From IMG/VR virus record IMGVR_UViG_3300007513_000003: a DNA stretch of 64,000 nt, one strand, 5' to 3'. The notes under the pieces are model-generated. The model worked only from the letters and a program-made list of their open reading frames with translations, was not told where the DNA came from and searched no databases. The position numbers and the translations under genes were made by a program. This document shows, in pieces, positions 5,711 through 38,338 of the stretch (within the stretch, counting starts at the first letter, position 1; each line of letters begins with the position of its first letter). This stretch comes from a virus. Its lineage: Duplodnaviria > Caudoviricetes.

Positions 5711-7780
5711 TTAACCAGTGCGTTTTGTGATCATTTCAGTGATATTAGCAGGGCACGGTGCGTAGTGACTAAACTCCATACTAAACTGACCACGGCCGCT
5801 CGTCATACCACGCAAGTCGCCAATATAGCCAAACATTTCACCAATTGGTGCTTCTGCCCAAATGCGTACCTTTTGTCCACTAACTTCTTGATTGCTAATC
5901 ATGCCGCGGCGTCTGTTAATGTCGCCAATAACGTCACCAACTTTATCCTCTGGAGCAATTACGTCAAGTTTCATGACAGGCTCTAGTAATTGTGGTCCTG
6001 CTTTAGGCATGGTTTGTCTAAAGCCACCTCGAGCCGCTAATTCAAACGCAATAGCACTTGAGTCAACTGCGTGTGAAGAACCGTCTGTTAATGTCACTTT
6101 AAAGTCTAACAACGGATAACCTGCTACAATGCCGTTATTAGCAGACTCTCTAAAACCTTTTTCAACAGCAGGCCAAAACTCTCTTGGCACATTACCACCG
6201 ACAACTTTTGATTCAAACTCAAAGCCGCCGCCTGATGGCAATGGCTCTATAGTATATTCAATATCACCAAATTGGCCAGAACCACCTGATTGCTTTTTAT
6301 GAACAAATTTGTCTTCCACTGTTTGTGTAATAGTTTCTCTGTATGCTACTTGTGGTTTACCAATACTTACTTCAATGCCATGGGTTCTTTTAAGAATGTC
6401 GCACTTAATGTCTAAGTGTAGTTCGCCCATACCCTTAAGAATAGTTTGCCCACTTTCTTGATCTGTTTCAACATGGAAGGACGGATCTTCAGCGACCATT
6501 TTACCAATAGCAGTTCCTAACTTATCCATGTCACCTTGTGTCTTTGGTTCAACAGCAATACTAATAACCGGGGCAGGGAATACCATTGGCTCTAGTACGG
6601 CGGGTTTATTTTTATCACACAGTGTATGACCTGTTTGTACAGTTTTCATACCAAGCAATGCAATAATATCGCCTGCTTGTGCAGAGTCCTTTTCTTCTCT
6701 ATTGTCGGCATGCATTTCTACAATACGGCCAACACGTTCGGACTTGCCTGTGCTACTGTTATAAATTGTATCACCTTTGTTAAGTTTGCCAGAGTAAATG
6801 CGTGTAAATGTCAATGCACCATACTTGTCGTCCATAATCTTAAACGCAAGTGCTCTTAGTGGTCTGTCATCATCAACAATAGCATGTTCACCTGTTTCAT
6901 TGCCTTCTAAGTCTACTTCTGGCTGTGGATCAACCTCAGTAGGATTAGGCAAATAATCAACCACGGCACTCAATACATTTTGTACGCCTTTATTTTTAAA
7001 TGAACTACCACAGAATGTTGGGAAGAAATCACAATTAATTGTACCCTTGCGAATACACTTTTTAAGATCTTCTTCGCTAATGCTGTCAGGATCCTCCATC
7101 CACTGCATCATTACATCGTCGTCTTGCTCTACAACTTGCTCTACCATTAGATCATAATATTCTTTGGCCTTGTCTGCCAAGTCTGCAGGAATGTCGCTAA
7201 TAGTGTAAGAAGTAGGATCTGCTGAATTTGACCAGGCCCATGCTTTTTGCGTAAGAATGTCTACAATGCCTACAAAATCATCTTCAGCACCAATTGGAAT
7301 AGCCATAATAACTGGTACTGCGTTTAAGCGATCTTTAATTTGCTCTACTACACGATAGAAATCTGCACCAACTCTATCCATTTTGTTAACGTAAATAACA
7401 CGGGCAACTTCACTGTCATTAGCATAACGCCAGTTTGTTTCGGATTGTGGTTCTACGCCTCCTACCGCGCAAAAAACACCAACGCCACCGTCTAATACTT
7501 TCAATGAGCGGTATACTTCAATTGTAAAGTCAACGTGTCCTGGTGTGTCAATAATGTTAAACTGGTGGTCATCCCAAAAGCATGTTGTAGCGGCTGACTG
7601 AATAGTAATACCGCGTTCCTGCTCTTGCTCCATAAAATCTGTAGTAGCGGCGCCGTCATGTACTTCGCCTATCTTATGGATTTTACCTGTTAGTTTTAAA
7701 ATGCGCTCTGTTGTTGTAGTTTTACCTGCATCAACGTGAGCGAAAATTCCTATGTTTCTATACTTTTGTAGATCTGACAT
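5711..7780 (-). CDS. fusA: translation elongation factor G, full length (689 aa)
   Basis: [15 protein letters not shown] (G1), RGITI (G2), DTPGHVDF (G3), NKMD (G4), [30 protein letters not shown]. Confidence 0.97.
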
Positions 7781-7858: not shown

Positions 7859-9493
7859 TTAGAAACCCCACCAATCACGTACTCCGGGATTAAATGACCC
7901 GCTGGTTGTTCCTGTTATTTTCTCAACTTGCCCATCGCTGTTAGGCACGGGAGTAGAACTGAAATATTTATACTTTATCCATTCTTTACATTTATGACCT
8001 CCAACAAAAATTTCTTGTTCATTATAAGCATCTAATTCTACTTTATATCCCCAGATATAAGCAATATAGTTTAGCACGTCTACAGTAGATTCGTTTGCTA
8101 ATTCTCTACCGCTTTTACCTCTGTATAAATGTAACAATAATGTTCTTTTATCATCATGATCAAAGTCTCTTACTTGTATATCTGGAATGCGATAGTTATA
8201 GTCATATTGTCTTGCTAATTCTTTGCGTATGCTCTTGTAACCAGCGTTGTTATGGATTGCTTTTACTTGATAATGTGGATCTTGCTTGCGGTCGCCAAGT
8301 TGGAACAATCTAAAATCACGTATAACTTTTGGAGATAAAAACTGTAGTATAAAACTCTCGTCCCTATAATTAGCAACGATGTCTAATGTAATCTCTTTCC
8401 AATTACCGCCAGCAACATCAGGAAACCATTCTTTATCTTCTTTTGTTGGCTCATCGCACATACGTTTAATGTCTTGAAAAATAGCAAAACCTAATGCATA
8501 TGGATTTATGCCACCATAATATGGTTTATCAAATGTAAGTTGGTTTAAAACGTTTGTGTGTAGTTTTAAAAACTCTAGCATACTTGCGTCACAAATCAAA
8601 CCTTTTTCATGTAAACGATTCATTGTATAATAATGCACAAAGCAAGCATATCCTTCGTTCATCACTTTTGTTTGTCCTTGCGGATAAAAATATTGTGCTA
8701 TCTTACGCACAATACGACATAATTCGCGTTGCCAATCTGTTAAATTAGGCGCGTTTTTTTCAAGGAAATATATAATGTTTTCTTCTGGTTTATCCAAATA
8801 AACATATTTTCTGTCTGTTTTCTTCTTTTCTTCCTTTTTACGTTTAATTACTGTTGTGTCCCATAACTCATTAACATGTTTGCGTAAGTATTCTGCCCTT
8901 TCACCCGCTTTCTCTGCCTCTGCATACGAATTAAGTTTTACTGGACGCTTATATTTGTTAATACCGTAATTACGAATAGAGTGTAATGCATCTAAAAATA
9001 GTTCTACTTCGTCTAATCCATATTTTTCTTCACACTTCTTAACAAAGTTTTTAGCAAATACAAGATAATCAATAATTGCTTCTGCGTTTGTCCATGTTTT
9101 AAACAAGTAGTTATTTTTAAAGAAATGGTTGTGGCCAAACGCGGCGTGAGCAATAACTAATGCTTGCGTGGTCATTGTATTCTCTTCCATGAGATAGTTT
9201 ATGCATGGATTACTATTAATAACGAGTTCGTATGCTAAACTAGTTCTACCTTTTCTGTATTGATTTTCATAATGTGACCATGCCTTACCATTGCTCCAAT
9301 GGTTATATGATAAGGGCATACCAATACTTGCATATGCATCTAACATTTGCTCAAACGTTACAACTTCAAGTTGGTTCGTGTAAGTATCGCAACCAAGTTC
9401 ATTAACTGCAATATCTTCGCAAGCATCGTAGATGTTACTTACAAGTTCAAAACTCCAATCATCTTGTTGTGTGAATAATAGTTTAGTCATCAC
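7859..9493 (-). CDS. spoVR: SpoVR/YcgB family protein
   Basis: MPLSYNHWSNG, LAYELVINSNPC, HAAFGHNHFFKNN, TKVMNEGYA, YRDESFI.QFLSP. Confidence 0.93.
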   Translation of the reverse strand: MMTKLLFTQQDDWSFELVSNIYDACEDIAVNELGCDTYTNQLEVVTFEQMLDAYASIGMPLSYNHWSNGKAWSHYENQYRKGRTSLAYELVINSNPCINYLMEENTMTTQALVIAHAAFGHNHFFKNNYLFKTWTNAEAIIDYLVFAKNFVKKCEEKYGLDEVELFLDALHSIRNYGINKYKRPVKLNSYAEAEKAGERAEYLRKHVNELWDTTVIKRKKEEKKKTDRKYVYLDKPEENIIYFLEKNAPNLTDWQRELCRIVRKIAQYFYPQGQTKVMNEGYACFVHYYTMNRLHEKGLICDASMLEFLKLHTNVLNQLTFDKPYYGGINPYALGFAIFQDIKRMCDEPTKEDKEWFPDVAGGNWKEITLDIVANYRDESFILQFLSPKVIRDFRLFQLGDRKQDPHYQVKAIHNNAGYKSIRKELARQYDYNYRIPDIQVRDFDHDDKRTLLLHLYRGKSGRELANESTVDVLNYIAYIWGYKVELDAYNEQEIFVGGHKCKEWIKYKYFSSTPVPNSDGQVEKITGTTSGSFNPGVRDWWGF

Positions 9494-10829
9494 TTTTATC
9501 CTTTGGTGTAAAAAACCTTCTAAAAACTGGATATATATCTTTGCTTTGATGAACTCTACCTAATTGTATATTCGACCATTCTTGTGATAACATATAATAT
9601 CTCTTTTCCATACCAGCGCCTGCTACATATTTCAAATCAGCATGTGTCTGACCTGCATTAGGAACAATGCATAAGAATGTAAAATATTGGCAAATAGGTA
9701 AAAGATCGTTGCGTAAAACTTCTGCTACTTTATCATTGTCTGTTGTAAAATTATCACCATCACTTGCCTGGCTAATATAAATGTTCCAGTGTTCTAAATC
9801 ATATCGCTTCTTAATAATTTCATGTGTTAATTCTAATGCTGAACTTACTACTGTGCCGCCACTTTCTTTGCTATTAAAGAATTCATCTTCTGTACATTCC
9901 TTAGCAACAGTATGGTGGCGTATAAACACAATGTCTACCAAGTCATACTTCATATTTAAAAACATATGTAGTAAAATAAAAAAGCGTTTTGCTAAATTCT
10001 TTTCACGTTCTTGCATTGATATTGATACATCTAAAATACAAAACATTACAGCCGCATTTTTAGGCTTTGGTACTTTAGAGAAGTTGTTAAACTTTAGATC
10101 AATTGGATCAATAAACGAGATAGCATTGTATCTTGCTCGTATGCGTTTTATCTCTTCCTCAATCTCTTGCAAACGTAGCCATTCTTGTGTTCTATGATCT
10201 TTGCCTGGTGGCAATGTAGCAAAAAACTCAAGTATTTTATCACGCTCTTCTAGTAGTTCGCGTAATTTTCTTCCCTTAGGCTTTTTAAGAGCCAAACGTC
10301 TGCCAATACTGCGTATCATGCTCTGTTCTAAATTTAGATTGTTTGGTGAGCCTTCATTTACATAACCTGCTCTTTCAACACTAAACTCTTCAATACTTTT
10401 CTTTTGTTTCTCTATTAAATCAGGAAGTTCTAAGTCTTCAAATAATATATCTAAAAATTCATCTTTGTTTATAGAGAATACAAAATCGTCTTCGCCATAT
10501 GCATCATCTGAACCTTCAGATCCGCCGCCGCCTCCTTGGCCACCCTGGGGTGGTTTGCGTATTTTATCGCCAGGAACATATTCTTTATTGCCGGGTAAGA
10601 CATAATCTTTTTCACCTGATTTAGGATCGTATTGGAATTGTGGTTCTTTAATACTTTTAGCAGGAACTTTGACGCGGCTGCCAGACTTTAGATCCTTGAT
10701 AGATCTGTTTTTAATAGTTTCGTCTAAGCTTTCCTTAATATACTTCTTTGACCGCTCAATGAAGCGTTGTCTATTGGAAAGATTCTTTCCCTTAGGATTT
10801 GAACGCCTGTCAATAATATGCTTGGCCAT
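9483..10829 (-). CDS. yeaH: YeaH/YhbH family vWA-like protein
   Basis: IIDRR.NPKGKNLSNRQRF, Gly-rich linker, DVSISM (MIDAS-like), ESGGTVVSSAL, SDGDN. Confidence 0.93.
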   Translation of the reverse strand: MAKHIIDRRSNPKGKNLSNRQRFIERSKKYIKESLDETIKNRSIKDLKSGSRVKVPAKSIKEPQFQYDPKSGEKDYVLPGNKEYVPGDKIRKPPQGGQGGGGGSEGSDDAYGEDDFVFSINKDEFLDILFEDLELPDLIEKQKKSIEEFSVERAGYVNEGSPNNLNLEQSMIRSIGRRLALKKPKGRKLRELLEERDKILEFFATLPPGKDHRTQEWLRLQEIEEEIKRIRARYNAISFIDPIDLKFNNFSKVPKPKNAAVMFCILDVSISMQEREKNLAKRFFILLHMFLNMKYDLVDIVFIRHHTVAKECTEDEFFNSKESGGTVVSSALELTHEIIKKRYDLEHWNIYISQASDGDNFTTDNDKVAEVLRNDLLPICQYFTFLCIVPNAGQTHADLKYVAGAGMEKRYYMLSQEWSNIQLGRVHQSKDIYPVFRRFFTPKDKSDD

Positions 10830-10838
10830 GGTAAACCC

Positions 10839-12779
10839 TTAACTTGACTTCTGGGTTCTCATGTACCATTCAACAAGTCTACGAACTTGCCTATCAGTAT
10901 AACCTTTCTCTTCCATACGAGCAACAAAGTCATTGTGCTTTTGTTGGTCATCTTTGTTTTGCTTATTACCAAAGGAAATAATAGGTAGTAGTTCTTCTGT
11001 GGACGCAAACATTTTCTTTTCAATAATCTCGCGTAGTTTTTCATAACTCGACCACTTTGGATTCTTACCTTTGTTTTTTGCTTTTGCTCTCAATACAAAG
11101 TTGACTACTTCGCTACGGAAGTCTTTTGGATTAGCGATACCGGCTGGTTTCTCAATCTTCTCTAACTCCTCGTTTAGTACTTCGCGGCTAAACAAGTTGC
11201 CTGTGTCAGGATCTTTAAAGTCAATCTCTTGAATCCAGTGATCAGCGTATTCAATATAACGATCAAACAAGTTTTGTCCATAATCACTATAACTTTCTAA
11301 ATATGCTTTTTGTATTTCATTACCAATAAAGTCAGCATACTTTGGAGCCAACCATTCTTTAATAAAGTTTGTGAGCGTTTTTTCATTTTCCTCACCAAAC
11401 TGATCGCGTCTAATTGCTTGCTCTAGTACAAACATCAAATGTACTGGATCAGCCGCAATCTCGTTTGTGTCAAAGTTAAACACTTGTGACAGTATCTTAA
11501 ACGCAAAACGTGTTGATGAGCCAGACATGCCTTCGTCTACTCCCGCAACGTCTTTATATTCTTGTAGTGACTTTGCTTGTGGATCAGTGTCTTTTAAATT
11601 CTTGCCGTTATACACTTGCATTTTGGAAAACAAATTACTGTTTTCATGCTCACGCAGTCTACTTAAAATACTATACTGCGATAACATTTCAAGTGTTTGC
11701 GGGGCACATGGATGCTGTGCTAGTCCACTTGAGTCTAGCATCTTTTCGTAAATACTAATCTCTTCATCAATACGTAAGCAGTAAGGAACCTTAACAACAT
11801 ACACACGATCTAGGAACGCTTCGTTGTTTTTGTTGTTCTTAAATGACTGCCATTCTGATTCGTTACTATGTGCTAAAATTGTTCCACTAAACGGAATAGC
11901 ACTAATACCTTCTGTACCCATATAGTTGCCTTCCTGCGTAGCAGTTAGCAATGGGTGTAATACTTTGATTGGTGCTTTAAACATTTCAACAAATTCCATA
12001 AGGCCTTGGTTGCCTTTACATAATGCACCACTAAATGCGTATGAGTCTGGATCGTGTTGTGAGAAGTACTCAAGTTGACGAATATCTGTCTTACCAACCA
12101 ATGAACTAATGTCTTGGTTGTTTTCGTCACCTGGCTCTGTTTTTACTACAGCAATCTGTTTTAGTTTACTTGGCTGTAATTTTACTACTGTAAATTTAGT
12201 AATGTCACCATCAAATTCATCCAAGCGTTTAATTGCCCATGGGCTTAGTAAGCCAGTTAGGTAACGCTTTGATATTTTATATTCTTTCTCAATTTGCTCA
12301 CCATATTTCTCAGGAGAGAACAGAGACAACGGACTTTCAAAAACAGGGCTAATTACATCGCCTGCTTTTAGTACATAAATTGGATGTATTTCCATTAATT
12401 CTTTTAAACGTTCAGCAAGACTCGACTTGCCGCCGCCCACTGGGCCCAACAAATATAATATTTGTTTACGTTCTTCTAAGCCTTGTGCGGCATGTTTAAA
12501 AAATCCAACAATTCTTTCTACGGTATCTTCTAGTCCGTAAAAGTCTTTAAATGCTGGATATACTCGTAATGTTCTGTTCAGGAAGATGCGTGACAACCGT
12601 GGATCTTCCGAAGTATCTATATGCTCTGGGTCCCCAATGGCAGCTAACATTCGTTCTGCTGATGTAGCATATGCGAGTGGGTCCTTCTTACATAGATTTA
12701 GATACTCTTCAAGTGTGAACTCTTGCTCTTTATATGATTGGTAATCTGCAGAGAACTCCTTTAATAGTTTGCTTGCCAT
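10839..12779 (-). CDS. prkA: PrkA/YeaG family AAA+ Ser/Thr kinase
   Basis: Walker A LLGPVGGGKSS, EPGDENNQDIS, EFVEMFKAPIKVLHPLLTATQE, HSNESEW. Confidence 0.95.
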   Translation of the reverse strand: MASKLLKEFSADYQSYKEQEFTLEEYLNLCKKDPLAYATSAERMLAAIGDPEHIDTSEDPRLSRIFLNRTLRVYPAFKDFYGLEDTVERIVGFFKHAAQGLEERKQILYLLGPVGGGKSSLAERLKELMEIHPIYVLKAGDVISPVFESPLSLFSPEKYGEQIEKEYKISKRYLTGLLSPWAIKRLDEFDGDITKFTVVKLQPSKLKQIAVVKTEPGDENNQDISSLVGKTDIRQLEYFSQHDPDSYAFSGALCKGNQGLMEFVEMFKAPIKVLHPLLTATQEGNYMGTEGISAIPFSGTILAHSNESEWQSFKNNKNNEAFLDRVYVVKVPYCLRIDEEISIYEKMLDSSGLAQHPCAPQTLEMLSQYSILSRLREHENSNLFSKMQVYNGKNLKDTDPQAKSLQEYKDVAGVDEGMSGSSTRFAFKILSQVFNFDTNEIAADPVHLMFVLEQAIRRDQFGEENEKTLTNFIKEWLAPKYADFIGNEIQKAYLESYSDYGQNLFDRYIEYADHWIQEIDFKDPDTGNLFSREVLNEELEKIEKPAGIANPKDFRSEVVNFVLRAKAKNKGKNPKWSSYEKLREIIEKKMFASTEELLPIISFGNKQNKDDQQKHNDFVARMEEKGYTDRQVRRLVEWYMRTQKSS

Positions 12780-25388: not shown

Positions 25389-25417
25389 ATTATATATTAC
25401 ATTACGGTCATTGTCAA
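25389..25417 (-). promoter_or_regulatory. sigma70-type promoter
   Basis: TTGACA-N17-TATAAT. Confidence 0.8.
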
Positions 25418-26436
25418 GAAATAGCGTATTTGTTTAGATTGCGCTCGAATTCGCTCAAACGTTTATATATTGAACGCAATTCTGTAATTGTTGTCCAGTT
25501 ATGCAAGAATAATGCAAACCCACCATGTACTTTCTGGAACGCATTTGACACTTGCACTACTACACCTAATAATACAGCACCAGTAAACAAACTTGGACCT
25601 ACGATTAAGTAAGGCACAATAACCATTGCTTGATCATACATAATCATCCATGTGTCAAAATATCCATAGTGTAAGTACAAACGTTGATAGTTGAAACGTA
25701 TGCCTGTGAATAAACTTGCTAATGTTTCTGGTTGTGCATAGTTTACTTTGTCATCTTCACCAAACACTAAATCCTTTCTAAATGCGGCTTCGACACGTTG
25801 ATTGTTATATTCAAGTCCGGGCAGTTTAATACCTACAAACCATGAAATAACCAACCCGCCTATAGATACAAATAATGCTACCCATACAAGTGAGCCAGGA
25901 ATGTCGCTAAAGAATGGAATAGTAACTGAAGAACTTAACCCCCACAGCACTGGAATAAACGCAACGAGTGTCATTAACGCCCGCACAACTTGCAATCCCA
26001 AACTTTCTACAATTCTAGCAAACCGATTGCAGTCCTCTTGAATACGCTGTGATGCACCTTCAATTTCTTCTTCAACATTGCGCCAACGCGGAATGTAGTC
26101 AAAGGTCATTGCCTCTCGCCAACGGAGTCCGTATATGCGTGTAAACCACCCAGTGAGCACCGCTAACAGCACATATGGAAATGCTAATACAGCAAATGAG
26201 GGATCACCATCACTAAAATATTGTAAGCCTAGTAATTTTTCATAAAATAAAGAAATGCCTTCACTGGCATTATTTTTATATTCACCAGACTTTTGTAGTA
26301 AGTCATAAAATCCACCATACCATGTGTTTATCGCTACTGTTAATTGAACTTGTAACCATAACGATATAACTAATAGAGAGCCACCGCCATAAGCCCATAG
26401 TGCCCATTTCTTAGTTTTATAAAATGCTTTTATCAT
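25414..26436 (-). CDS. sbmA: SbmA/BacA-like peptide transporter
   Basis: QVQLTVAINTWYGGFYDLLQ, EGASQRIQED, NNQRVEAAFRKDLV, multiple TM helices. Confidence 0.8.
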   Translation of the reverse strand: MIKAFYKTKKWALWAYGGGSLLVISLWLQVQLTVAINTWYGGFYDLLQKSGEYKNNASEGISLFYEKLLGLQYFSDGDPSFAVLAFPYVLLAVLTGWFTRIYGLRWREAMTFDYIPRWRNVEEEIEGASQRIQEDCNRFARIVESLGLQVVRALMTLVAFIPVLWGLSSSVTIPFFSDIPGSLVWVALFVSIGGLVISWFVGIKLPGLEYNNQRVEAAFRKDLVFGEDDKVNYAQPETLASLFTGIRFNYQRLYLHYGYFDTWMIMYDQAMVIVPYLIVGPSLFTGAVLLGVVVQVSNAFQKVHGGFALFLHNWTTITELRSIYKRLSEFERNLNKYAIS

Positions 26437-27737: not shown

Positions 27738-28311
27738 TATAGCATTTGTACTAGGGAATGGCACAAGTAGACAAGCGATATCTTTAGACAGTTTAAAAGA
27801 AAATGGAATAGTCTATGGATGTAATGCATTGTATAGAGAGTTCACTCCACATCATCTTGTCGCCGTTAATCCTGAAATGATATTTGAAATTAATAAGGCA
27901 AAATATAAAGGAGCAACCTACTTTGAAAATCCACACGGCTGGAGTTCTGGACCTACAGCATTGTGGTTAGCAAGTAACATTGGACATACCACCATCTACA
28001 TATTAGGATTTGACTTTACTGGTTTAAACGGAAAAATTAATAATATATATGCCGGCACACCAAACTATCTAGACACTGATTCTGAAGAAGTGTATTATGG
28101 TAACTGGTTAAAACATACTGCTGAAGTTATAGAAGAGTTCCCACAAATAGATTATATTAGAATTAAAAACAACAATTATAATCCTGAAAAATTATCTATA
28201 CTTAGTAATTACAATGAAGAGGAAATAAGTATGTTTGCAAAAAGAATAAACTTAGCAAATGATATCGGCCAAATTCATCAGGTATTACGAACTAAAAAAG
28301 TTTTTAATTAG
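27727..28311 (+). CDS. GNG.SR/MptE(DUF115)-like protein, paralogue of 15657..16301
   Basis: AFVLGNGTSR, YGCNA, WSSGP, ILGFDF. Confidence 0.6.
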   Translation: MKNNIAFVLGNGTSRQAISLDSLKENGIVYGCNALYREFTPHHLVAVNPEMIFEINKAKYKGATYFENPHGWSSGPTALWLASNIGHTTIYILGFDFTGLNGKINNIYAGTPNYLDTDSEEVYYGNWLKHTAEVIEEFPQIDYIRIKNNNYNPEKLSILSNYNEEEISMFAKRINLANDIGQIHQVLRTKKVFN

Positions 28312-28795
28312 CGGGGTTTGAAAGGAAACGATCTTTTTCTAGGCCATACTTGTCTAATATATAGTAATATAAATCTACATATTTTTCATAATGCAGTATT
28401 TCGTAATCTCTGCCGCGCCCATCTTGCGATCGTTCTAGCCATGTTTCTGGATTTGCTGATCCTTTTGACCTGTTAATAGAAGAACATGCCGGAACATGAT
28501 TTTCCGAATCATTAGCAAACTCTACCCAAAGTTCTTTTGGTAATCCTAACTCACATGCTTCTTTTAAACTTACAACATGGTCAATGTCAATACCGTCGCA
28601 TAGTGGATGAACACCTCGTTCATAGCCTGTATACCAACCATGTGTTGCATCACTTGAGTAGGATCGAAAGTTAAATTGTTCTCTAACGTTAGTACAACCT
28701 TCAACACACGCAACCGCATTAATGCTTGCGTATGTTAGTAAGCCTAATAACCCTAATACTAATATAACATTTTTAATAATATTTCTTGTTATCAT
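28304..28795 (-). CDS. exported HNH nuclease (DUF1524/GmrSD-C-like)
   Basis: Signal peptide; IDIDHVVSL...ANDSENHVPAC..INRSKG. Confidence 0.75.
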   Translation of the reverse strand: MITRNIIKNVILVLGLLGLLTYASINAVACVEGCTNVREQFNFRSYSSDATHGWYTGYERGVHPLCDGIDIDHVVSLKEACELGLPKELWVEFANDSENHVPACSSINRSKGSANPETWLERSQDGRGRDYEILHYEKYVDLYYYILDKYGLEKDRFLSNPAN

Positions 28796-29577
28796 GAATA
28801 CATACTTCCATATAAATCTAAATAAGGTACTAACACATTTTTACACCAGTCACAATGACCTTCATAACTCGGATGCATCCCGTCTTCATAGAGGGTAATA
28901 TTTTTATCTATAGACCATTGCAGTATGCTTTTTTCTAGAGGTATTACTTTAATATTAGAATATCTATGTAAAAAATCCAATGTTTGTGGGTACATCTCGT
29001 CTTTGTATTCTCCATACCAATCCCAACCAAAATATAATATTATTTCTTTGACCGTATTAGACCATAAGCCTATATTAACAAGCGTTTCTTGCAAATGATA
29101 AATTGTTCGGGTAAGGCAGCCAAATTTCATTTCATAATGAAATCTTTGATTGTTTGCTCTAATACTTATTGCTTTCCTGTTAAAAATACTCCATTCTTCT
29201 TCAGTATAACTTTTTAGTTTATTGTGATAGAACCACATCCAATCCCAGTCAGGTTTCTTCTCAACGTCGTCTTCCCCATATTTAAGACCATGAAACTCTA
29301 CATCTTGATCGTCATTCAATAGATAAAAAAGTCTATCTGGCGCTGTTAACTGCCAAAGTAGTGTGGTATCTTTATTAATTAAATTTTTTGCATAAAGATT
29401 AGATAATCTATGGTGTTGTAAATAATTGTCTCCACCGCCTTGTGAAATATGTTTAATATCTAAACTATAGGTACCATTTAAATAGTGCACATAGCCGTGC
29501 TGTTGAGTTAAACTACATCCTGTTAAACTACATCCTAAAGCAACATATTTGTAAGGCGTTTCTTCTTTCGTTTCCAT
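28792..29577 (-). CDS. SGNH hydrolase-like protein
   Basis: ALGCSLT, GGDN, DGMHPSYEGH; start inferred from TAAATA-N5-ATG. Confidence 0.6.
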   Translation of the reverse strand: METKEETPYKYVALGCSLTGCSLTQQHGYVHYLNGTYSLDIKHISQGGGDNYLQHHRLSNLYAKNLINKDTTLLWQLTAPDRLFYLLNDDQDVEFHGLKYGEDDVEKKPDWDWMWFYHNKLKSYTEEEWSIFNRKAISIRANNQRFHYEMKFGCLTRTIYHLQETLVNIGLWSNTVKEIILYFGWDWYGEYKDEMYPQTLDFLHRYSNIKVIPLEKSILQWSIDKNITLYEDGMHPSYEGHCDWCKNVLVPYLDLYGSMYS

Positions 29578-29589
29578 ACACATATTTAG

Positions 29590-29847
29590 TGGGGGCGACT
29601 TTGTTAAGAAGGTGTCGCCCCCGAAACCCCCTACGCGACCGCTAATTAGGCGGCTAATGCGTAATCGTAATAATCGTCATTTGCAATTATATAGTTTGCT
29701 GTTTTTTAATATGGAACTGCTCCCATATGTCGTCCATTTATCCTCTTCACCCTGTCGAAACTGTGTCACCCCCGTAAAAAATTTGGTGGAGGTGCCGGGC
29801 ACTGCCCCCGGGTCCAGAATGCGTACTTTCAACTTCATACGACAATC
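29590..29847 (-). ncRNA. ssrA: two-piece (circularly permuted) tmRNA; tag ANDDYYDYALAA
   Basis: Minus strand: acceptor piece ...GGACCCGGGGGCAGTGCCCGGCACCTCCACCA (ends 29784), 10-nt intervening segment, coding piece GGGGGTGACACAGTTTCGAC (starts 29773); 7-bp acceptor stem with G3:U70; tag ORF 29646-29684; late box 29853-29860. Confidence 0.93.
29591..29622 (-). terminator. GC-rich hairpin at the 3' end of the tmRNA coding piece
   Basis: GGGGGCGAC...GTCGCCCCC. Confidence 0.65.
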
Positions 29848-29872
29848 AAAATTATTTATATAGGTGTAGAAG

Positions 29873-29902
29873 AATAAAGGAATACCTGAGCATTCCTTTA
29901 TT
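29873..29902. terminator. 11-bp perfect hairpin between rpmG and ssrA
   Basis: AATAAAGGAAT-N8-ATTCCTTTATT. Confidence 0.65.
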
Positions 29903-30071
29903 TAATTTTCTTTTCTTCAAACCAGACGTGTTTTCTTAAAACTGGATCGTATTTCTTTTTACGTAGTTTTTCAGGATTGCGTCCGTTTTTAGTAGTAGTA
30001 TAATAGTAGCCAGTGCCTTCTGTTGACACTAGTTTAACTATTCTAATTGATTTACTAGTAGGATAAGACAT
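29898..30071 (-). CDS. rpmG: 50S ribosomal protein bL33 (57 aa, non-zinc type), absent from the ORF track
   Basis: Hand translation [57 protein letters not shown]; TAATG coupling to the upstream ORF. Confidence 0.93.
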
Positions 30072-30397
30072 TAGTATTGATTTTTTGTTGTGTTGTCGGC
30101 AAACGCATGATTGTCAATAACATGTTCTTTTGCTTTTTCATTTGTCATTTCATCAGATGTTTCCGGAATAAAAGGAACATCAAGATTTGTGTAAATGTTA
30201 TACCAACGTGATGATGGGCCCCATGTTGCGGGCCCGCAATCGAAATATGGTGTTTCAGTGTACCTATGTGTTTCTTTGAGTATTTGTTTTGAATTTGATT
30301 CTTGCAGATCTTTACAAAATGCGTAAAAAGTTTCTGCTTTTTCAACATCGCCTTCTGCAAGTTTGAGACACTCTAATTTTAAAGTTGAGTCATCCAT
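30071..30397 (-). CDS. hypothetical protein
   Basis: [10 protein letters not shown]-terminus; SD-like AGGA. Confidence 0.65.
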
Positions 30398-30411
30398 AAT
30401 CAAATCCTATA

Positions 30412-30579
30412 TTAGTCTTGCCAAATTCTCCATGCACCGTAAATAATAGCGGCCCATGCAATCCAAGTAACTAGTGGTGAAAATAATAGTGCAAGAACAC
30501 CAACACCTACTAGTACTGTGCCATCCCAAGTTGATCTTTCTGACCATTTTGCTTTGGCCCAATCAATTAAATTAAACAT
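30412..30579 (-). CDS. 55-aa membrane protein, absent from the ORF track
   Basis: Hand translation MFNLIDWAKAKWSERSTWDGTVLVGVGVLALLFSPLVTWIAWAAIIYGAWRIWQD; SD AGGAG. Confidence 0.7.
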   Translation of the reverse strand: MFNLIDWAKAKWSERSTWDGTVLVGVGVLALLFSPLVTWIAWAAIIYGAWRIWQD

Positions 30580-30602
30580 AATAAGCTCCTTTAAAATATA
30601 AG

Positions 30603-30902
30603 TTATTTATCCGCTTCTACTTTAACTTGTAGCGGATAATTATTATTTCGTGCCAAAAGTGTCACTTCAATACCGTGTTGTTCAGCAATTTCATATGGCA
30701 AAATAGCAACAATAGCAGAACCTTCTGCATCTACTTTATATGTTAGTTCTTGTGCTTCTTCTAATGTGTGGCTAAACACAGTCATAAGAACATTAACAAC
30801 AAAGTCCATTGGTGTTACATCATCATTGATGAATATAACTTTATACAATGATGGCTCTTTTAAATCTAATTGCTTTTTAATCTTGGTTGCAGTATCAGAC
30901 AT
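30603..30902 (-). CDS. clpS: ATP-dependent Clp protease adaptor ClpS
   Basis: EPSLYKVIFINDDVTPMDFVV.VL..VF, V..EGSAIV, YEIAE, YPLQVKVE. Confidence 0.92.
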   Translation of the reverse strand: MSDTATKIKKQLDLKEPSLYKVIFINDDVTPMDFVVNVLMTVFSHTLEEAQELTYKVDAEGSAIVAILPYEIAEQHGIEVTLLARNNNYPLQVKVEADK

Positions 30903-31465
30903 TAATTATCCTTTTCGTAATCTTTCTTAATATTTTTATCTACAAAGTCTTTTAGTCTATATATTTTATATCTTGCGCCTTCTCGAGTTTGTCCACTTTG
31001 CCCTCGCTCCAGCATACCCTCTAAAAATTCAATAACTAGTGGGTTTCCTTTTTTCTTTGCTTCTCTTCCACGTTTAAGTTCTTCTTGCATTTCTCGTGAG
31101 AAAGGTATTTTATATAAACGAGTATTTCTCTCTCCTAAATGTTGCACCCATATTTCTATTACATGCCCTTGTCGTTGTCCATCAAGTAGCACAACTTTTC
31201 CTGAAGGGTATGTAGGAAGTGCATATCCTAGAAAATTATTTAACTTCACTATTGTACTATAGAATAAGAAAAAAATCAATGGAATTGTTAAAAACTTTAT
31301 ATAAAACTTAGCTGGTGTTTTTAGTAATGCGTATAATACTAATATTGCTAATACTAGCATGGCACCCAATTGTAAACCAAACTCGTATATAATATTATAC
31401 CAGTCTGATAAAACGATTTCATCCGTAGTATAATCAGTAAAATCTATTATTTCTTTCTCTGACAT
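30902..31465 (-). CDS. membrane protein, third gene of the ExbB/MotA-type module
   Basis: Two N-terminal TM helices; coupled gene order. Confidence 0.65.
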   Translation of the reverse strand: MSEKEIIDFTDYTTDEIVLSDWYNIIYEFGLQLGAMLVLAILVLYALLKTPAKFYIKFLTIPLIFFLFYSTIVKLNNFLGYALPTYPSGKVVLLDGQRQGHVIEIWVQHLGERNTRLYKIPFSREMQEELKRGREAKKKGNPLVIEFLEGMLERGQSGQTREGARYKIYRLKDFVDKNIKKDYEKDN

Positions 31466-31467
31466 AA

Positions 31468-32298
31468 CTAATTAGTTCCCTCTTGTTGCCATTTTCTCAA
31501 TTGAGTTGTCATTCCATCCCATAGACTAGGATCATATGTATCACCAATTGCCATAGGATGATTGCCATTATCGTCTTCAAAGTGTGTTAACCCATCTGTA
31601 TATACAAATGGTGTCGGATGATTATTAACGTATTCTATAGAATATGTATAACTTTGGGTACCGTCTGGGGTTGCGATTCCATTCTCTCTTTGTACAACTG
31701 TAAAGTTAAATGCAGTAACTTCTTCGCCAGTTTCTGTCATTTCAAATTTGGCAGTAGTAATTTCTTTAAACGGATTTACTCTTACTAATTCAACTGTTAC
31801 AGGTATTGGATATTTGGGAGGATTTGGAGATATGTCCTCAGGATTATCTGCTCCCGTGTATCCGGAAAGTCTTGACCGATGTGCATAATAGTGTACATTA
31901 ACTGTCCATTCACCTGGAATCCAGCCACGTATAGTAGCAACTTCAACATTTTCATCTACTGCTACTATAGTGCCGTCTGCTAACATAAGTGTATCGTTTG
32001 CCGCGCCCAAATCATCTCTATCTAAATGCATTAAGCCTGATGTGCGCGATTTAAAACTAACAACATTACCTTCAGGATCTTTTACCCACAAGTCAATATC
32101 ACTGTAATTGCCAACTTCCCAAGTCAATGTAATAATTAGTTCAGACTTAGGGTCTATTTTTTTATTCGTAGGTATAGGAGGTTGTATTAGCAAAAAAGAG
32201 ATAACAAACAGAAATACGAAACCTACTAATGTATTAAAAAGTAGATCAGTAAATCCTAGTCCTGAAAATTTTGATCGCTCACGCTTTCCTGTGGTCAT
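31468..32298 (-). CDS. single-TM partner of the MotA/ExbB-like protein
   Basis: GFTDLLFNTL (conserved TM Asp as in ExbD/TolR/MotB), then DIDLWVKDP periplasmic domain. Confidence 0.65.
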   Translation of the reverse strand: MTTGKRERSKFSGLGFTDLLFNTLVGFVFLFVISFLLIQPPIPTNKKIDPKSELIITLTWEVGNYSDIDLWVKDPEGNVVSFKSRTSGLMHLDRDDLGAANDTLMLADGTIVAVDENVEVATIRGWIPGEWTVNVHYYAHRSRLSGYTGADNPEDISPNPPKYPIPVTVELVRVNPFKEITTAKFEMTETGEEVTAFNFTVVQRENGIATPDGTQSYTYSIEYVNNHPTPFVYTDGLTHFEDDNGNHPMAIGDTYDPSLWDGMTTQLRKWQQEGTN

Positions 32299-34470: not shown

Positions 34471-34782
34471 TTAGTATAATCTATTTTTACTAGGTATTCT
34501 TTCTGCTTGCTCTTTAAGATGCCGCTTGCGGGCAACGTCTCTTGCTCTTTTTCTTTTAATACTTGGCTTTTCATAATGTTCGCGGGCTTTTAGTTCTTGC
34601 AATTTGCCGTCGTTGTCTATTTTCTTCTTAAGTTTACGTATTGCCTTTTCAACATTTCCGTCATTAACCCAAACTCTGAGTCCTGTAATTTTTACTGGAG
34701 CCCGTTTATCTTTTTGTTTGAATGGCGCTCTTCTATTATTATTCCATTTTGTATTTCTATTATTCCAAGTTTGTGCCATCAT
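34471..34782 (-). CDS. rpsU: 30S ribosomal protein bS21 with basic N-terminal extension
   Basis: V.VNDGNVEKAIRKLKKKI, REHYEKPS.KRKR. Confidence 0.88.
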   Translation of the reverse strand: MMAQTWNNRNTKWNNNRRAPFKQKDKRAPVKITGLRVWVNDGNVEKAIRKLKKKIDNDGKLQELKAREHYEKPSIKRKRARDVARKRHLKEQAERIPSKNRLY

Positions 34783-37492: not shown

Positions 37493-38338
37493 TTAATTAT
37501 TATACATTTCCATAGCACGAATAAAACGTGTCATACCAATGCCACCGCCTACTCTTGGAAAGAAGTCCATTGCTAAAAAGTCTTCCAACTCTTTTTCAAC
37601 TCTTTCTCTACCAAACGTATCAAATAGTATATTAGCATAACCGCCGTCACTAATAGTATGGAACATATGTTTCATTTGTTCTTTATCTGTAGCACGTTCT
37701 GCTGATCCAATTGTTTCTTGTCCAGCAATAATAACATCAATCTTTGCCGCAGTTTCGCCATCGTCGTTTTGTTTCATGTTCCAAAATGGACTTGTGTAGT
37801 TTGGAAAGTTTTTAATCATTGCTACACGGCCATTAAAGTTTTGGCACATTTTTTCTTCATGCTCGTGTTCTAATTCTTTAACGCCGTAAATATCACACCA
37901 TTCTAAATAATCTTTAGCAACAATGTTTTCGCCATCGGACCATGTTAAGTAGTCCATAAGTTCGCGTTCCATCTTCTCTAAATCTAAAATAGTTCCTGGA
38001 AACTCAAACTCAAACATTGGAAATATTAGTTCATGTCTACCAGCTACCGGATTTGGCTCTTGCCTATAGGAGGTGGAAATACAAAAAAACCCCGGAACGT
38101 CGGGGCGTGTTAGTAATTCATGTTCGAGCCACATTTGGCCCGTTTGTGGCAGGGGCCATAGTTGCCCTGCGTAATTATAGGTCGCTATTGTTGTTGGATC
38201 TTCGCATGCCGCTAGTATGCTTAATCTATTTTGTGTGTGTACTTCTAAGAATCCTTTAGCCATAAAAAAAGACCTTAATAGGTCTGCGGCTTGTGTAAAG
38301 TGTTGTGGATTGATAAGTTGTGTCATTGTTTTCTCCAT
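37493..38338 (-). CDS. class II aminoacyl-tRNA synthetase catalytic-domain protein (Asn/Asp/Lys-like, no anticodon domain)
   Basis: Motif 2 SYRQEP...RH..IFPMFEFE, ETIGSAER, motif 3 PRVGGGIGMTRF; only 281 aa. Confidence 0.85.
   Translation of the reverse strand: MEKTMTQLINPQHFTQAADLLRSFFMAKGFLEVHTQNRLSILAACEDPTTIATYNYAGQLWPLPQTGQMWLEHELLTRPDVPGFFCISTSYRQEPNPVAGRHELIFPMFEFEFPGTILDLEKMERELMDYLTWSDGENIVAKDYLEWCDIYGVKELEHEHEEKMCQNFNGRVAMIKNFPNYTSPFWNMKQNDDGETAAKIDVIIAGQETIGSAERATDKEQMKHMFHTISDGGYANILFDTFGRERVEKELEDFLAMDFFPRVGGGIGMTRFIRAMEMYNN

Follow-up and report, generated by a model that had tools for sequence, protein, structure and literature searches.

A circularly permuted tmRNA gene with a tyrosine-rich tag and a mosaic tRNA-like elbow in a marine phage

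A 64,000-nucleotide (nt) stretch of DNA from an uncultured giant phage of marine origin (Duplodnaviria; Caudoviricetes; IMG/VR record IMGVR_UViG_3300007513_000003), called the window here, carries on its minus strand a circularly permuted (two-piece) transfer-messenger RNA (tmRNA) gene. ARAGORN and two Rfam models place it at about 29588-29847, and we consider with good confidence that the locus is a functional, phage-encoded tmRNA. The single gene that ARAGORN reported in the whole window is a permuted tmRNA (29555-29876, minus strand) with the same tag, ANDDYYDYALAA, that had been read from the sequence. The Rfam model RF04321 (tmRNA_permuted) matched over its full length (1-213) with 121.8 bits against a cut-off of 47 (E 2.9e-23), and RF01849 (alpha_tmRNA) scored 83.7 bits against a cut-off of 50. 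The detection is far beyond chance level. The initial annotation, made from the letters of the sequence, had called the locus a circularly permuted tmRNA, and both ARAGORN and the covariance models agree with it. No glnA riboswitch or other Rfam family was found at the locus at E<=1.

Anatomy and conservation of the gene

The permuted order was confirmed: the T arm, the acceptor 3' strand and CCA all lie 5' of the acceptor 5' strand. On the minus strand, the acceptor piece (29784-29847, 64 nt, RF04321 model positions 1-64) runs from the predicted start through TGTCGT, CATTCTG, the T arm, CACCTCC and A to CCA. As read from the sequence, the acceptor 3' strand CACCTCC is at 29794-29788, the discriminator A at 29787 and CCA at 29786-29784. 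An intervening sequence of 10 nt follows (29783-29774), predicted to be removed by processing; it serves as trailer to the acceptor piece (3') and as leader to the coding piece (5') and does not differ from the spacer of relative L157. The acceptor 5' strand GGGGGTG (29773-29767) then forms a stem of 7 base pairs (bp) with CACCTCC that includes G3:U70. The alanine identity set is present, consisting of the 7-bp acceptor stem, the discriminator A, CCA and G3:U70, and the G:U at position 3 is found in all 14 variants of the gene described below. The T arm CCGGG-GGCAGTG-CCCGG (29811-29795) has its stem at 29811-29807 and 29799-29795 and its loop at 29806-29800. Two helices read from the sequence join the pieces, CATTCTG (29821-29815) with CAGGGTG (29754-29748) and TGTCGT (29844-29839) with ACGACA (29733-29728). 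The acceptor pieces, spacer, G3:U70, GGCAGTG loop and both helices had been pointed out in the initial annotation, and each of them was recovered on the minus strand.

The coding piece (29588-29773, ~186 nt) ends ...ACU according to the RF04321 and RF01849 alignments and the covariation table. It consists, in order, of GGGGGTG, an analogue of the D loop (ACACAGTT, 29759-29766), the pairing strands, a hairpin, the tag frame, a stop hairpin, a pseudoknot and a 3' hairpin. The hairpin at 29710-29727 separates the tRNA-like domain from the tag, and the tag frame called by ARAGORN (29684-29646) runs from the resume codon GCA through ANDDYYDYALAA to TAA. In the 3' pseudoknot (29591-29632), AGGGGGU (29632-29626) pairs with ACCUUCU (29613-29607) inside the loop of the hairpin 29622-29614/29599-29591. 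The spacers of the tmRNA genes that we collected with an alpha-type T loop (viral contigs and 19 bacterial loci) range from 5 to 264 nt. The two shortest bacterial spacers are 5 and 6 nt, so the 10-nt spacer of the window has parallels in bacterial two-piece genes.

IMG/VR was baited with the ClpS adaptor and ribosomal protein L33, both encoded near the tmRNA gene, which yielded contigs carrying a homologous tmRNA directly 3' of L33. A coding-piece pattern gave 7 IMG/VR and 15 metagenome contigs, and removal of duplicates left 14 distinct variants, that is, the window and 13 relatives. The acceptor stem, the T stem, the three inter-piece helices and the hairpin after the tRNA-like domain consist of standard pairs in all 14. 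Five helices show compensatory double changes, seven pairs in total. These affect the 3-bp middle helix (U-A/A-U), two positions of the T stem, the hairpin after the tRNA-like domain (U-A/C-G, with one U-G intermediate), one pair of the 3' hairpin, and the 3' pseudoknot stem (G-C/C-G and U-A/C-G). For instance, 10 variants close the hairpin at 29710-29727 with C-G, 3 with U-A and 1 with U-G. The tags of the clade are ANDDYYDYALAA, ANDDYYDYAMAA, ANDDYYEYALAA, ANDSYYDYALAA and ANNDYYDYALAA, that is, the general form ANDDYY(D/E)YA(L/M)AA plus the last two, and their codon differences are mostly synonymous (GCA AAT GAC GAT versus GCT AAC GAC GAC, TTA versus CTA, and GCC versus GCT versus GCA). Because pairing is kept, compensatory changes occur and the tag codons drift synonymously, we take the gene to be no remnant but one on which selection acts for fold and tag alike.

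The tmRNA belongs to a small marine phage clade of its own. A search for the clade signature in bacterial genomes (~185,000 species) gave 30 matches, all attributable to chance and none with a tmRNA, so no bacterial source lineage was found. Among deposited phages, megablast of 28000-32000 gave no match, and a distant blastn search with the tmRNA gave just two matches, of 61 and 72 nt, in the tRNA-like domain. In IMG/VR, the exact 28-mer of T arm and acceptor had 0 matches. A degenerate T-arm pattern had more than 115 matches with an alpha-type T loop, none near the window, and an acceptor-spacer pattern had 14 matches, among them a second group of phage tmRNAs (L117, L126, L128 and L129) referred to below as clade B.

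These data bear on whether the locus is a non-functional passenger, either a captured host gene fragment or an integration-site remnant decaying in the phage. Integration often uses tmRNA genes, ARAGORN makes no call at many of the IMG/VR matches to the T-arm pattern, and the T loop of the window is non-canonical. However, a decaying copy is at odds with 14 variants that keep full pairing, compensatory changes and synonymous tag drift, with synteny kept in a lytic T4-like phage, and with the absence of the clade signature from the ~185,000 bacterial species searched. Integrase families are likewise absent among the Pfam matches of the window, and a non-canonical T loop is normal for the two-piece tmRNAs of bacteria and phages. 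We therefore regard the passenger explanation as very improbable and retain a functional tmRNA as the preferred reading.

Some observations weigh against function. The minimum-free-energy fold of the precursor barely beats shuffled sequences (z -1.84), and single-sequence folding recovered the acceptor stem and the 3' hairpin but not the full fold. The initial annotation had also suggested looking for a phage smpB. A search for SmpB (PF01668) in the 79 open reading frames (ORFs) of at least 90 amino acids in the window and in five related but incomplete IMG/VR records (11-235 kb) found none. Since no phage SmpB was found, function of the tmRNA would depend on SmpB of the host.

Subtype and the mosaic elbow

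The initial annotation had described the tmRNA as alphaproteobacterial in type. For the window, the RF01849 score and the GGCAGTG loop agree with this description, but the relatives do not. L149, L148 and L132, which represent three subgroups of the clade, scored 87.2-99.6 bits with the betaproteobacterial two-piece model (beta_tmRNA, RF01850; Sharkady and Williams 2004, cited in PMC9004378; cut-off 84) and 41-53 bits as alpha_tmRNA. All 13 relatives have canonical TTCGAnn T loops (TTCGACT, TTCGAAT or TTCGATC). The alpha score of the window is unique among the window and the three scored relatives; its beta_tmRNA match is out-competed by the alpha match of 83.7 bits and hence stays under the beta cut-off.

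The alpha call rests on two patches, the T arm and the D-loop analogue, which flank the unchanged spacer, one on each side. The T arm of the window, found in no other member of the clade, is identical to those of L157 and L149 at 9 of 17 positions and to those of clade B (L126, L128) at 16 of 17. At the D-loop analogue, where the relatives carry ..TGG.., the window is identical to L157 and L149 at 4 of 9 positions and to L126 at 8 of 8. Outside these patches, the gene shares 96-97% identity with its nearest relatives, L157 and L149, and just 45-51% with clade B. Clade B has the tags ANDELF(A)LAA(A) and the T loop GGCAGAG, and despite this loop it scores 135-138 bits as beta_tmRNA. Because the same loop type occurs in the beta-scoring clade B, a GGCNGUN T loop is not diagnostic of the alpha type. 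Among 132 T arms at loci retrieved by a GGCNGUN-type pattern, the loop was GGCGGTA in 83, GGCAGTA in 35 and GGCAGTG in 6. BLAST of the window tmRNA against a sample of 401 Pseudomonadota genomes matched essentially the T arm and acceptor only, apart from three weak matches elsewhere (E > 0.001).

Beyond the scores, features of both types are combined in the gene. With the betaproteobacterial type, the clade shares the motifs GC(A/G)UUCUGGAC and UUUCGACAGGG and, in some members, the tag end GCAAUGGCUGCCUAA, whereas the 3' end of the window forms a pseudoknot where the beta model has a terminal hairpin. With the alphaproteobacterial type (RF01849; Caulobacter; Keiler, Shapiro and Williams 2000, cited in PMC9004378), the window shares the T arm CCGGG-GGCAGUG-CCCGG, the same 17-mer being present in two alphaproteobacterial-type bacterial tmRNAs of the Pseudomonadota sample (L206 and L207), and a 3' motif, GGGGU...ACCUU...AACAAA...CCCACU, that resembles the alpha consensus. 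In contrast, the window lacks the alpha-specific outer helices, of which 12 pairs in two helices are non-standard in the RF01849 alignment, and it keeps to the beta pattern in both the D-loop analogue and the inner helix. Judged by these comparisons, the alpha call apparently stems from an elbow swapped into a backbone whose weak Rfam assignment is to the beta type.

In the tRNA-like fold, the T loop and the D-loop analogue touch. Their replacement as a matched pair is in itself evidence that the domain is in use, and it fits selection acting on the tRNA-like elbow. We rejected an assembly artefact at the T-arm patch as unlikely: the mere 4-5 nt that its left flank has in common with the donor type would not let a k-mer graph thread through, and the sequence reverts to the clade type on both sides of the patch. 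The joint replacement provides a natural experiment on which part of a tmRNA must match the host. It also indicates that Rfam alpha/beta calls, which are used for the host history of marine phages, can flip on a T arm of 17 nt, and host inference therefore needs comparison of the whole gene.

The spacer differs within the clade. In 10 of the 13 sister variants, 189-198 nt separate CCA from GGGGGTG (e.g., L148:601-792 and L132:6081-6272), and this long spacer encodes a conserved peptide of 47-50 amino acids (e.g., L148:646-786 and L132:6126-6266) whose N-terminal part is basic and whose C-terminal part is a membrane helix. The ORF has an AGGAGG ribosome-binding site, and its UGA stop ends 1 nt before the RNase P site. 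Eight variants of the peptide were found, and far pairs differ by ~15 synonymous and ~16 non-synonymous codons. It had no confident Pfam or PHROG family, and no copy occurs in the window. In the window and the L149/L157 group the spacer is just 9-10 nt, and because its end, TTTTTTAC, resembles the tail of the long spacer, the short form likely arose by deletion of the long one.

Long spacers are not confined to this clade. Six unrelated phage tmRNA lineages in IMG/VR (L048, L096, L016, L030, L035 and L072) have 132-264-nt spacers with ORFs. RF04321 covers all six at full length, and ARAGORN made no call in four of the five readable results. ARAGORN also misreads L132 and L148, giving bogus long tags or overlapping one-piece calls, where RF04321 covers the full length and the correct tag is ANDDYYEYALAA. 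Inside such spacers, a tRNA gene and a repeat are the only elements mentioned in the 2025 tmRNA database paper (PMC11915505).

A broader explanation that we hold to be rather unlikely is that marine phage tmRNAs are modular and traded in pieces. The T arm and D-loop analogue would have come together from a different lineage of phage tmRNAs to fit the SmpB or the tRNA-handling enzymes of a new host, the Tyr-rich tag would serve an adaptor or protease route chosen by the phage, and the long spacer, a complete mini-mRNA for the membrane peptide, would be a second payload lost in the window. If this were true, the elbow swap would be a molecular footprint of host switching.

Expression, tag and proposed function

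Under the preferred reading of a functional tmRNA, a single precursor would be transcribed, most likely from its own TATAAATA box, with a start near 29847. Host RNase P would cleave before G29773, and trimming of the 10-nt spacer would leave CCA (29784) as the 3' end. Four helices would then hold the acceptor piece (64 nt) and the coding piece (~186 nt) together: the acceptor stem, CAUUCUG/CAGGGUG, the 3-bp middle helix and UGUCGU/ACGACA. Charging by the host alanyl-tRNA synthetase (AlaRS) would occur via G3:U70, and host SmpB and EF-Tu would deliver the tmRNA to stalled ribosomes. Translation would resume at GCA 29684 and append ANDDYYDYALAA, and the ALAA end would lead to ClpXP-type proteolysis.

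The box TATAAATA at 29853-29860 (minus strand) is an exact match to a T4-type late-promoter-like sequence. It is 38 nt from the end of the L33 gene, and its predicted start, G29847, is three bases 5' of the first paired base, 29844. The raw count of the box is not enriched (18 in the window against 12.2 +/- 3.5 expected). Its placement was examined on the minus strand, where 14 of the 16 copies are at most 60 nt upstream of a minus-strand ORF start and the 15th precedes the tmRNA. Across 55 composition-matched permuted 8-mers, the same placement was seen in 19% of cases, and none had more than 6 such sites. A consensus scan found no sigma-70-like site directly upstream of the tmRNA. In the L148 subgroup, CATAAATA occupies the position of the box behind the same hairpin as in the window; this weak terminator-like hairpin past the L33 stop (29876-29899, minus strand) is followed by AUUCUUC and was not called by the consensus terminator scan, which requires 3 G-C pairs.

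Other features of the locus count against the proposed scheme. Within the clade, the exact box is found in the window only. The L149/L157 subgroup has another hairpin and different upstream sequence, and members of the L132 subgroup have 8 nt between the L33 stop and the tmRNA gene. No U-tract terminator was found at the 3' end of the tmRNA by a consensus scan of the window, where the TAAATA-N5-ATG of the next gene (29575-29588, minus strand) abuts the tmRNA; this arrangement is kept in the L149, L157, L164 and L169 variants. The L132/L160 subgroup has a canonical terminator at that position.

Part of the window stretch is present in 15 runs on record as RNA. Four runs were compared as assembled contigs, from which ends, strand and level are not readable and in which DNA carry-over is possible. 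In a seawater metatranscriptome, a 182-nt contig corresponds to 29569-29748 with one difference and has the tag type of the window itself; it extends 19 nt beyond the predicted 3' end of the tmRNA, a further point against the proposed ends. A second run of the same study matches 30070-30228 exactly. In two further runs, one of them only presumed to be RNA, L149-like relatives are represented by contigs that reach from L33 into the acceptor piece and part from the window precisely at the T loop. One such contig, from a library filed as metagenomic RNA-Seq whose RNA status is a guess, stops exactly at ...CCACCA, a weak hint of a processed CCA end.

It is possible, although we think it the less probable case, that the same RNA with the same job is not a late gene and is made mainly by read-through from a clpS-L33 operon or from another promoter class, with TATAAATA incidental or additive. 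This would suit the L132 subgroup, which has neither box nor hairpin in the 8 nt after L33, the L149/L157 subgroup, which lacks the box, the contigs spanning L33 and the acceptor piece, and the weakness of the hairpin behind L33. In phage Melnitz, moreover, the tmRNA was assigned to an early promoter (PMC9004378). However, 15 of the 16 minus-strand boxes in the window precede a gene, the box precedes the first paired base by 8 nt, a geometry shared with the other late starts of the phage, the L148 subgroup retains CATAAATA at the corresponding position, and contigs with two genes are no proof of a single transcript. The late promoter proposed in the initial annotation thus holds as a correctly spaced T4-type box, and late expression is a reasonable reading for this phage, but late timing is not conserved and does not extend to the clade as a whole.

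The initial annotation had also described the tag as rich in tyrosine, and comparison with other tags supports this. The tag of the window has 3 Tyr; in a comparison set of 56 distinct tags, taken from permuted tmRNAs of bacteria and viral contigs, no tag exceeds one. The comparison tags start with ANDN in 42 of 56 cases, and that of the window starts with ANDD. The frame of the window tag opens with an Ala resume codon and is closed by an in-frame stop behind a hydrophobic Ala-Ala end. No DDYY-type tag was found in the supplements of two published tmRNA papers. The SsrA tag of E. coli is AANDENYALAA. The window tag shares its AAND start and YALAA end, which contain the LAA determinant for ClpX and part of the SspB determinants, and differs in the middle, which is DYYD instead of EN, two residues longer and with two extra Tyr. 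Because the ends match this classical tag, a ClpX-type degron would be expected on the tag. The initial annotation further proposed that the adaptor-binding part may set the tag apart from host tags; at both ends the tag is canonical.

The private middle of the tag also leaves room for a tool directed against the host, which we judge improbable. The RNA could act as a decoy that sequesters host SmpB, AlaRS or EF-Tu, or as a tagger whose Tyr-rich tag is recognized by a factor different from the usual ssrA adaptors of the host, perhaps together with the phage ClpS. Besides the three Tyr and the ANDD start of the clade, ClpS, an adaptor that redirects ClpAP, is encoded 0.7 kb away, and a tmRNA-like RNA of mycobacteriophage DS6A inhibits host tmRNA (PMC11915505). 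On the other hand, the resume codon, frame, stop and ALAA end are intact and under purifying selection, which indicates that it matters whether the tag is translated. With AAND at its start and YALAA at its end, the tag carries the canonical determinants known from E. coli, and ClpS reads N-terminal residues, with nothing tying it to a C-terminal tag. A rescue RNA with a degradation tag accordingly remains our preferred reading.

Known phage tmRNAs and genomic surroundings

Phage two-piece tmRNAs were known before this work. A two-piece ssrA was published in 2022 in the OM43 phage Melnitz by Buchholz et al., who counted 53 two-piece tmRNAs (50 aquatic) in a survey of 18,146 phage genomes. In their set of 47 Melnitz-like contigs, 17 carried a permuted tmRNA, and from an alpha-type ssrA they inferred a SAR11-to-OM43 host transition (PMC9004378). 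Al-Shayeb et al. (2020) listed tmRNAs and SmpB in huge phages (PMC7162821), and a 2025 tmRNA database holds 79 phage sequences (PMC11915505). The clade described here adds one more to these, a gain that is modest taken alone. New, and likewise modest, are the mosaic elbow, the conserved Tyr-rich tag and a clpS...L33-tmRNA block; the block and the tag bear on the purpose of phage tmRNAs, be it rescue, amino-acid recycling or selective tagging.

The Melnitz and pelagimyophage-like contigs (PMC9004378) have in common with the window a permuted tmRNA, a tag frame, a marine T4-like myophage as carrier and no reported phage SmpB. By its description, Melnitz differs in that the window has no glnA riboswitch (Rfam, E<=1), has L33 and clpS as neighbours and has a Tyr-rich tag. 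The box upstream in the window is of the late type, TATAAATA, whereas an early promoter was proposed for Melnitz, and the closest relatives of the window score as beta-type and not as alpha-type. Compared with deposited phages in general, no sequence match of the window extends past about 70 nt of the tRNA-like domain. A search with the tmRNA of a pelagiphage-like contig, L014, likewise failed to retrieve Melnitz. The huge phages of Al-Shayeb et al. (2020; PMC7162821) are similar in being giant phages with a tmRNA beside EF-G and ribosomal proteins. Their ARAGORN tmRNAs are listed without anatomy, and SmpB was not found in the window or the five related records.

One bacterial tmRNA was found with resembling features. 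L211, in the 0.9-Mb bacterial genome G322, is a two-piece tmRNA with an alpha-type T loop, an 11-nt spacer and a UUUCGACAGG motif, and the last 15 nt of its tag, GCAATGGCTGCCTAA, equal those of the phage variant L149. L211 could point to the host lineage.

The tmRNA of the window is part of a conserved clpS...L33-tmRNA block in an island of translation and proteostasis genes. The L33 gene (29898-30071, minus strand, 57 amino acids; Pfam PF00471, E 2.3e-15) is directly upstream of the tmRNA in every clade member. A tblastn search with L33 in 50,697 deposited phage records gave matches that all look like bacterial sequence or contamination, and L33 seems to be rare among known phages. The ClpS adaptor gene (30603-30902; Pfam PF02617, E 3.2e-27) is in the same minus-strand run, and in relatives found via ClpS the tmRNA is about 0.7-1.7 kb downstream. 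The island around the tmRNA, with Hsp20 and ClpS, also encodes a full-length EF-G (5711-7780), ribosomal protein S21 (34471-34782) and a catalytic domain like that of class II aminoacyl-tRNA synthetases (37493-38338), all on the minus strand.

Directly 3' of the tmRNA, a gene for a 263-amino-acid protein (28792-29583, minus strand) has the TAAATA-N5-ATG start and Trp-rich motifs; used as bait, it had almost no IMG/VR relatives, and it matched no Pfam or PHROG family. Further minus-strand genes encode an SbmA/BacA-family inner-membrane transporter (25414-26436; Pfam E 4e-122) and a complete trio of YeaG/PrkA kinase, DUF444 (YeaH-like) and SpoVR (7859-12779). The trio is 56-68% identical to those of 630-640-kb uncultured phages, of Ralstonia phage RsoM2USA and of a record named Enterobacter phage LAU1. 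The window also encodes baseplate-like and lysozyme proteins and ribonucleotide reductase, and its best protein matches are to huge uncultured phages and the Ralstonia jumbo phage RsoM2USA.

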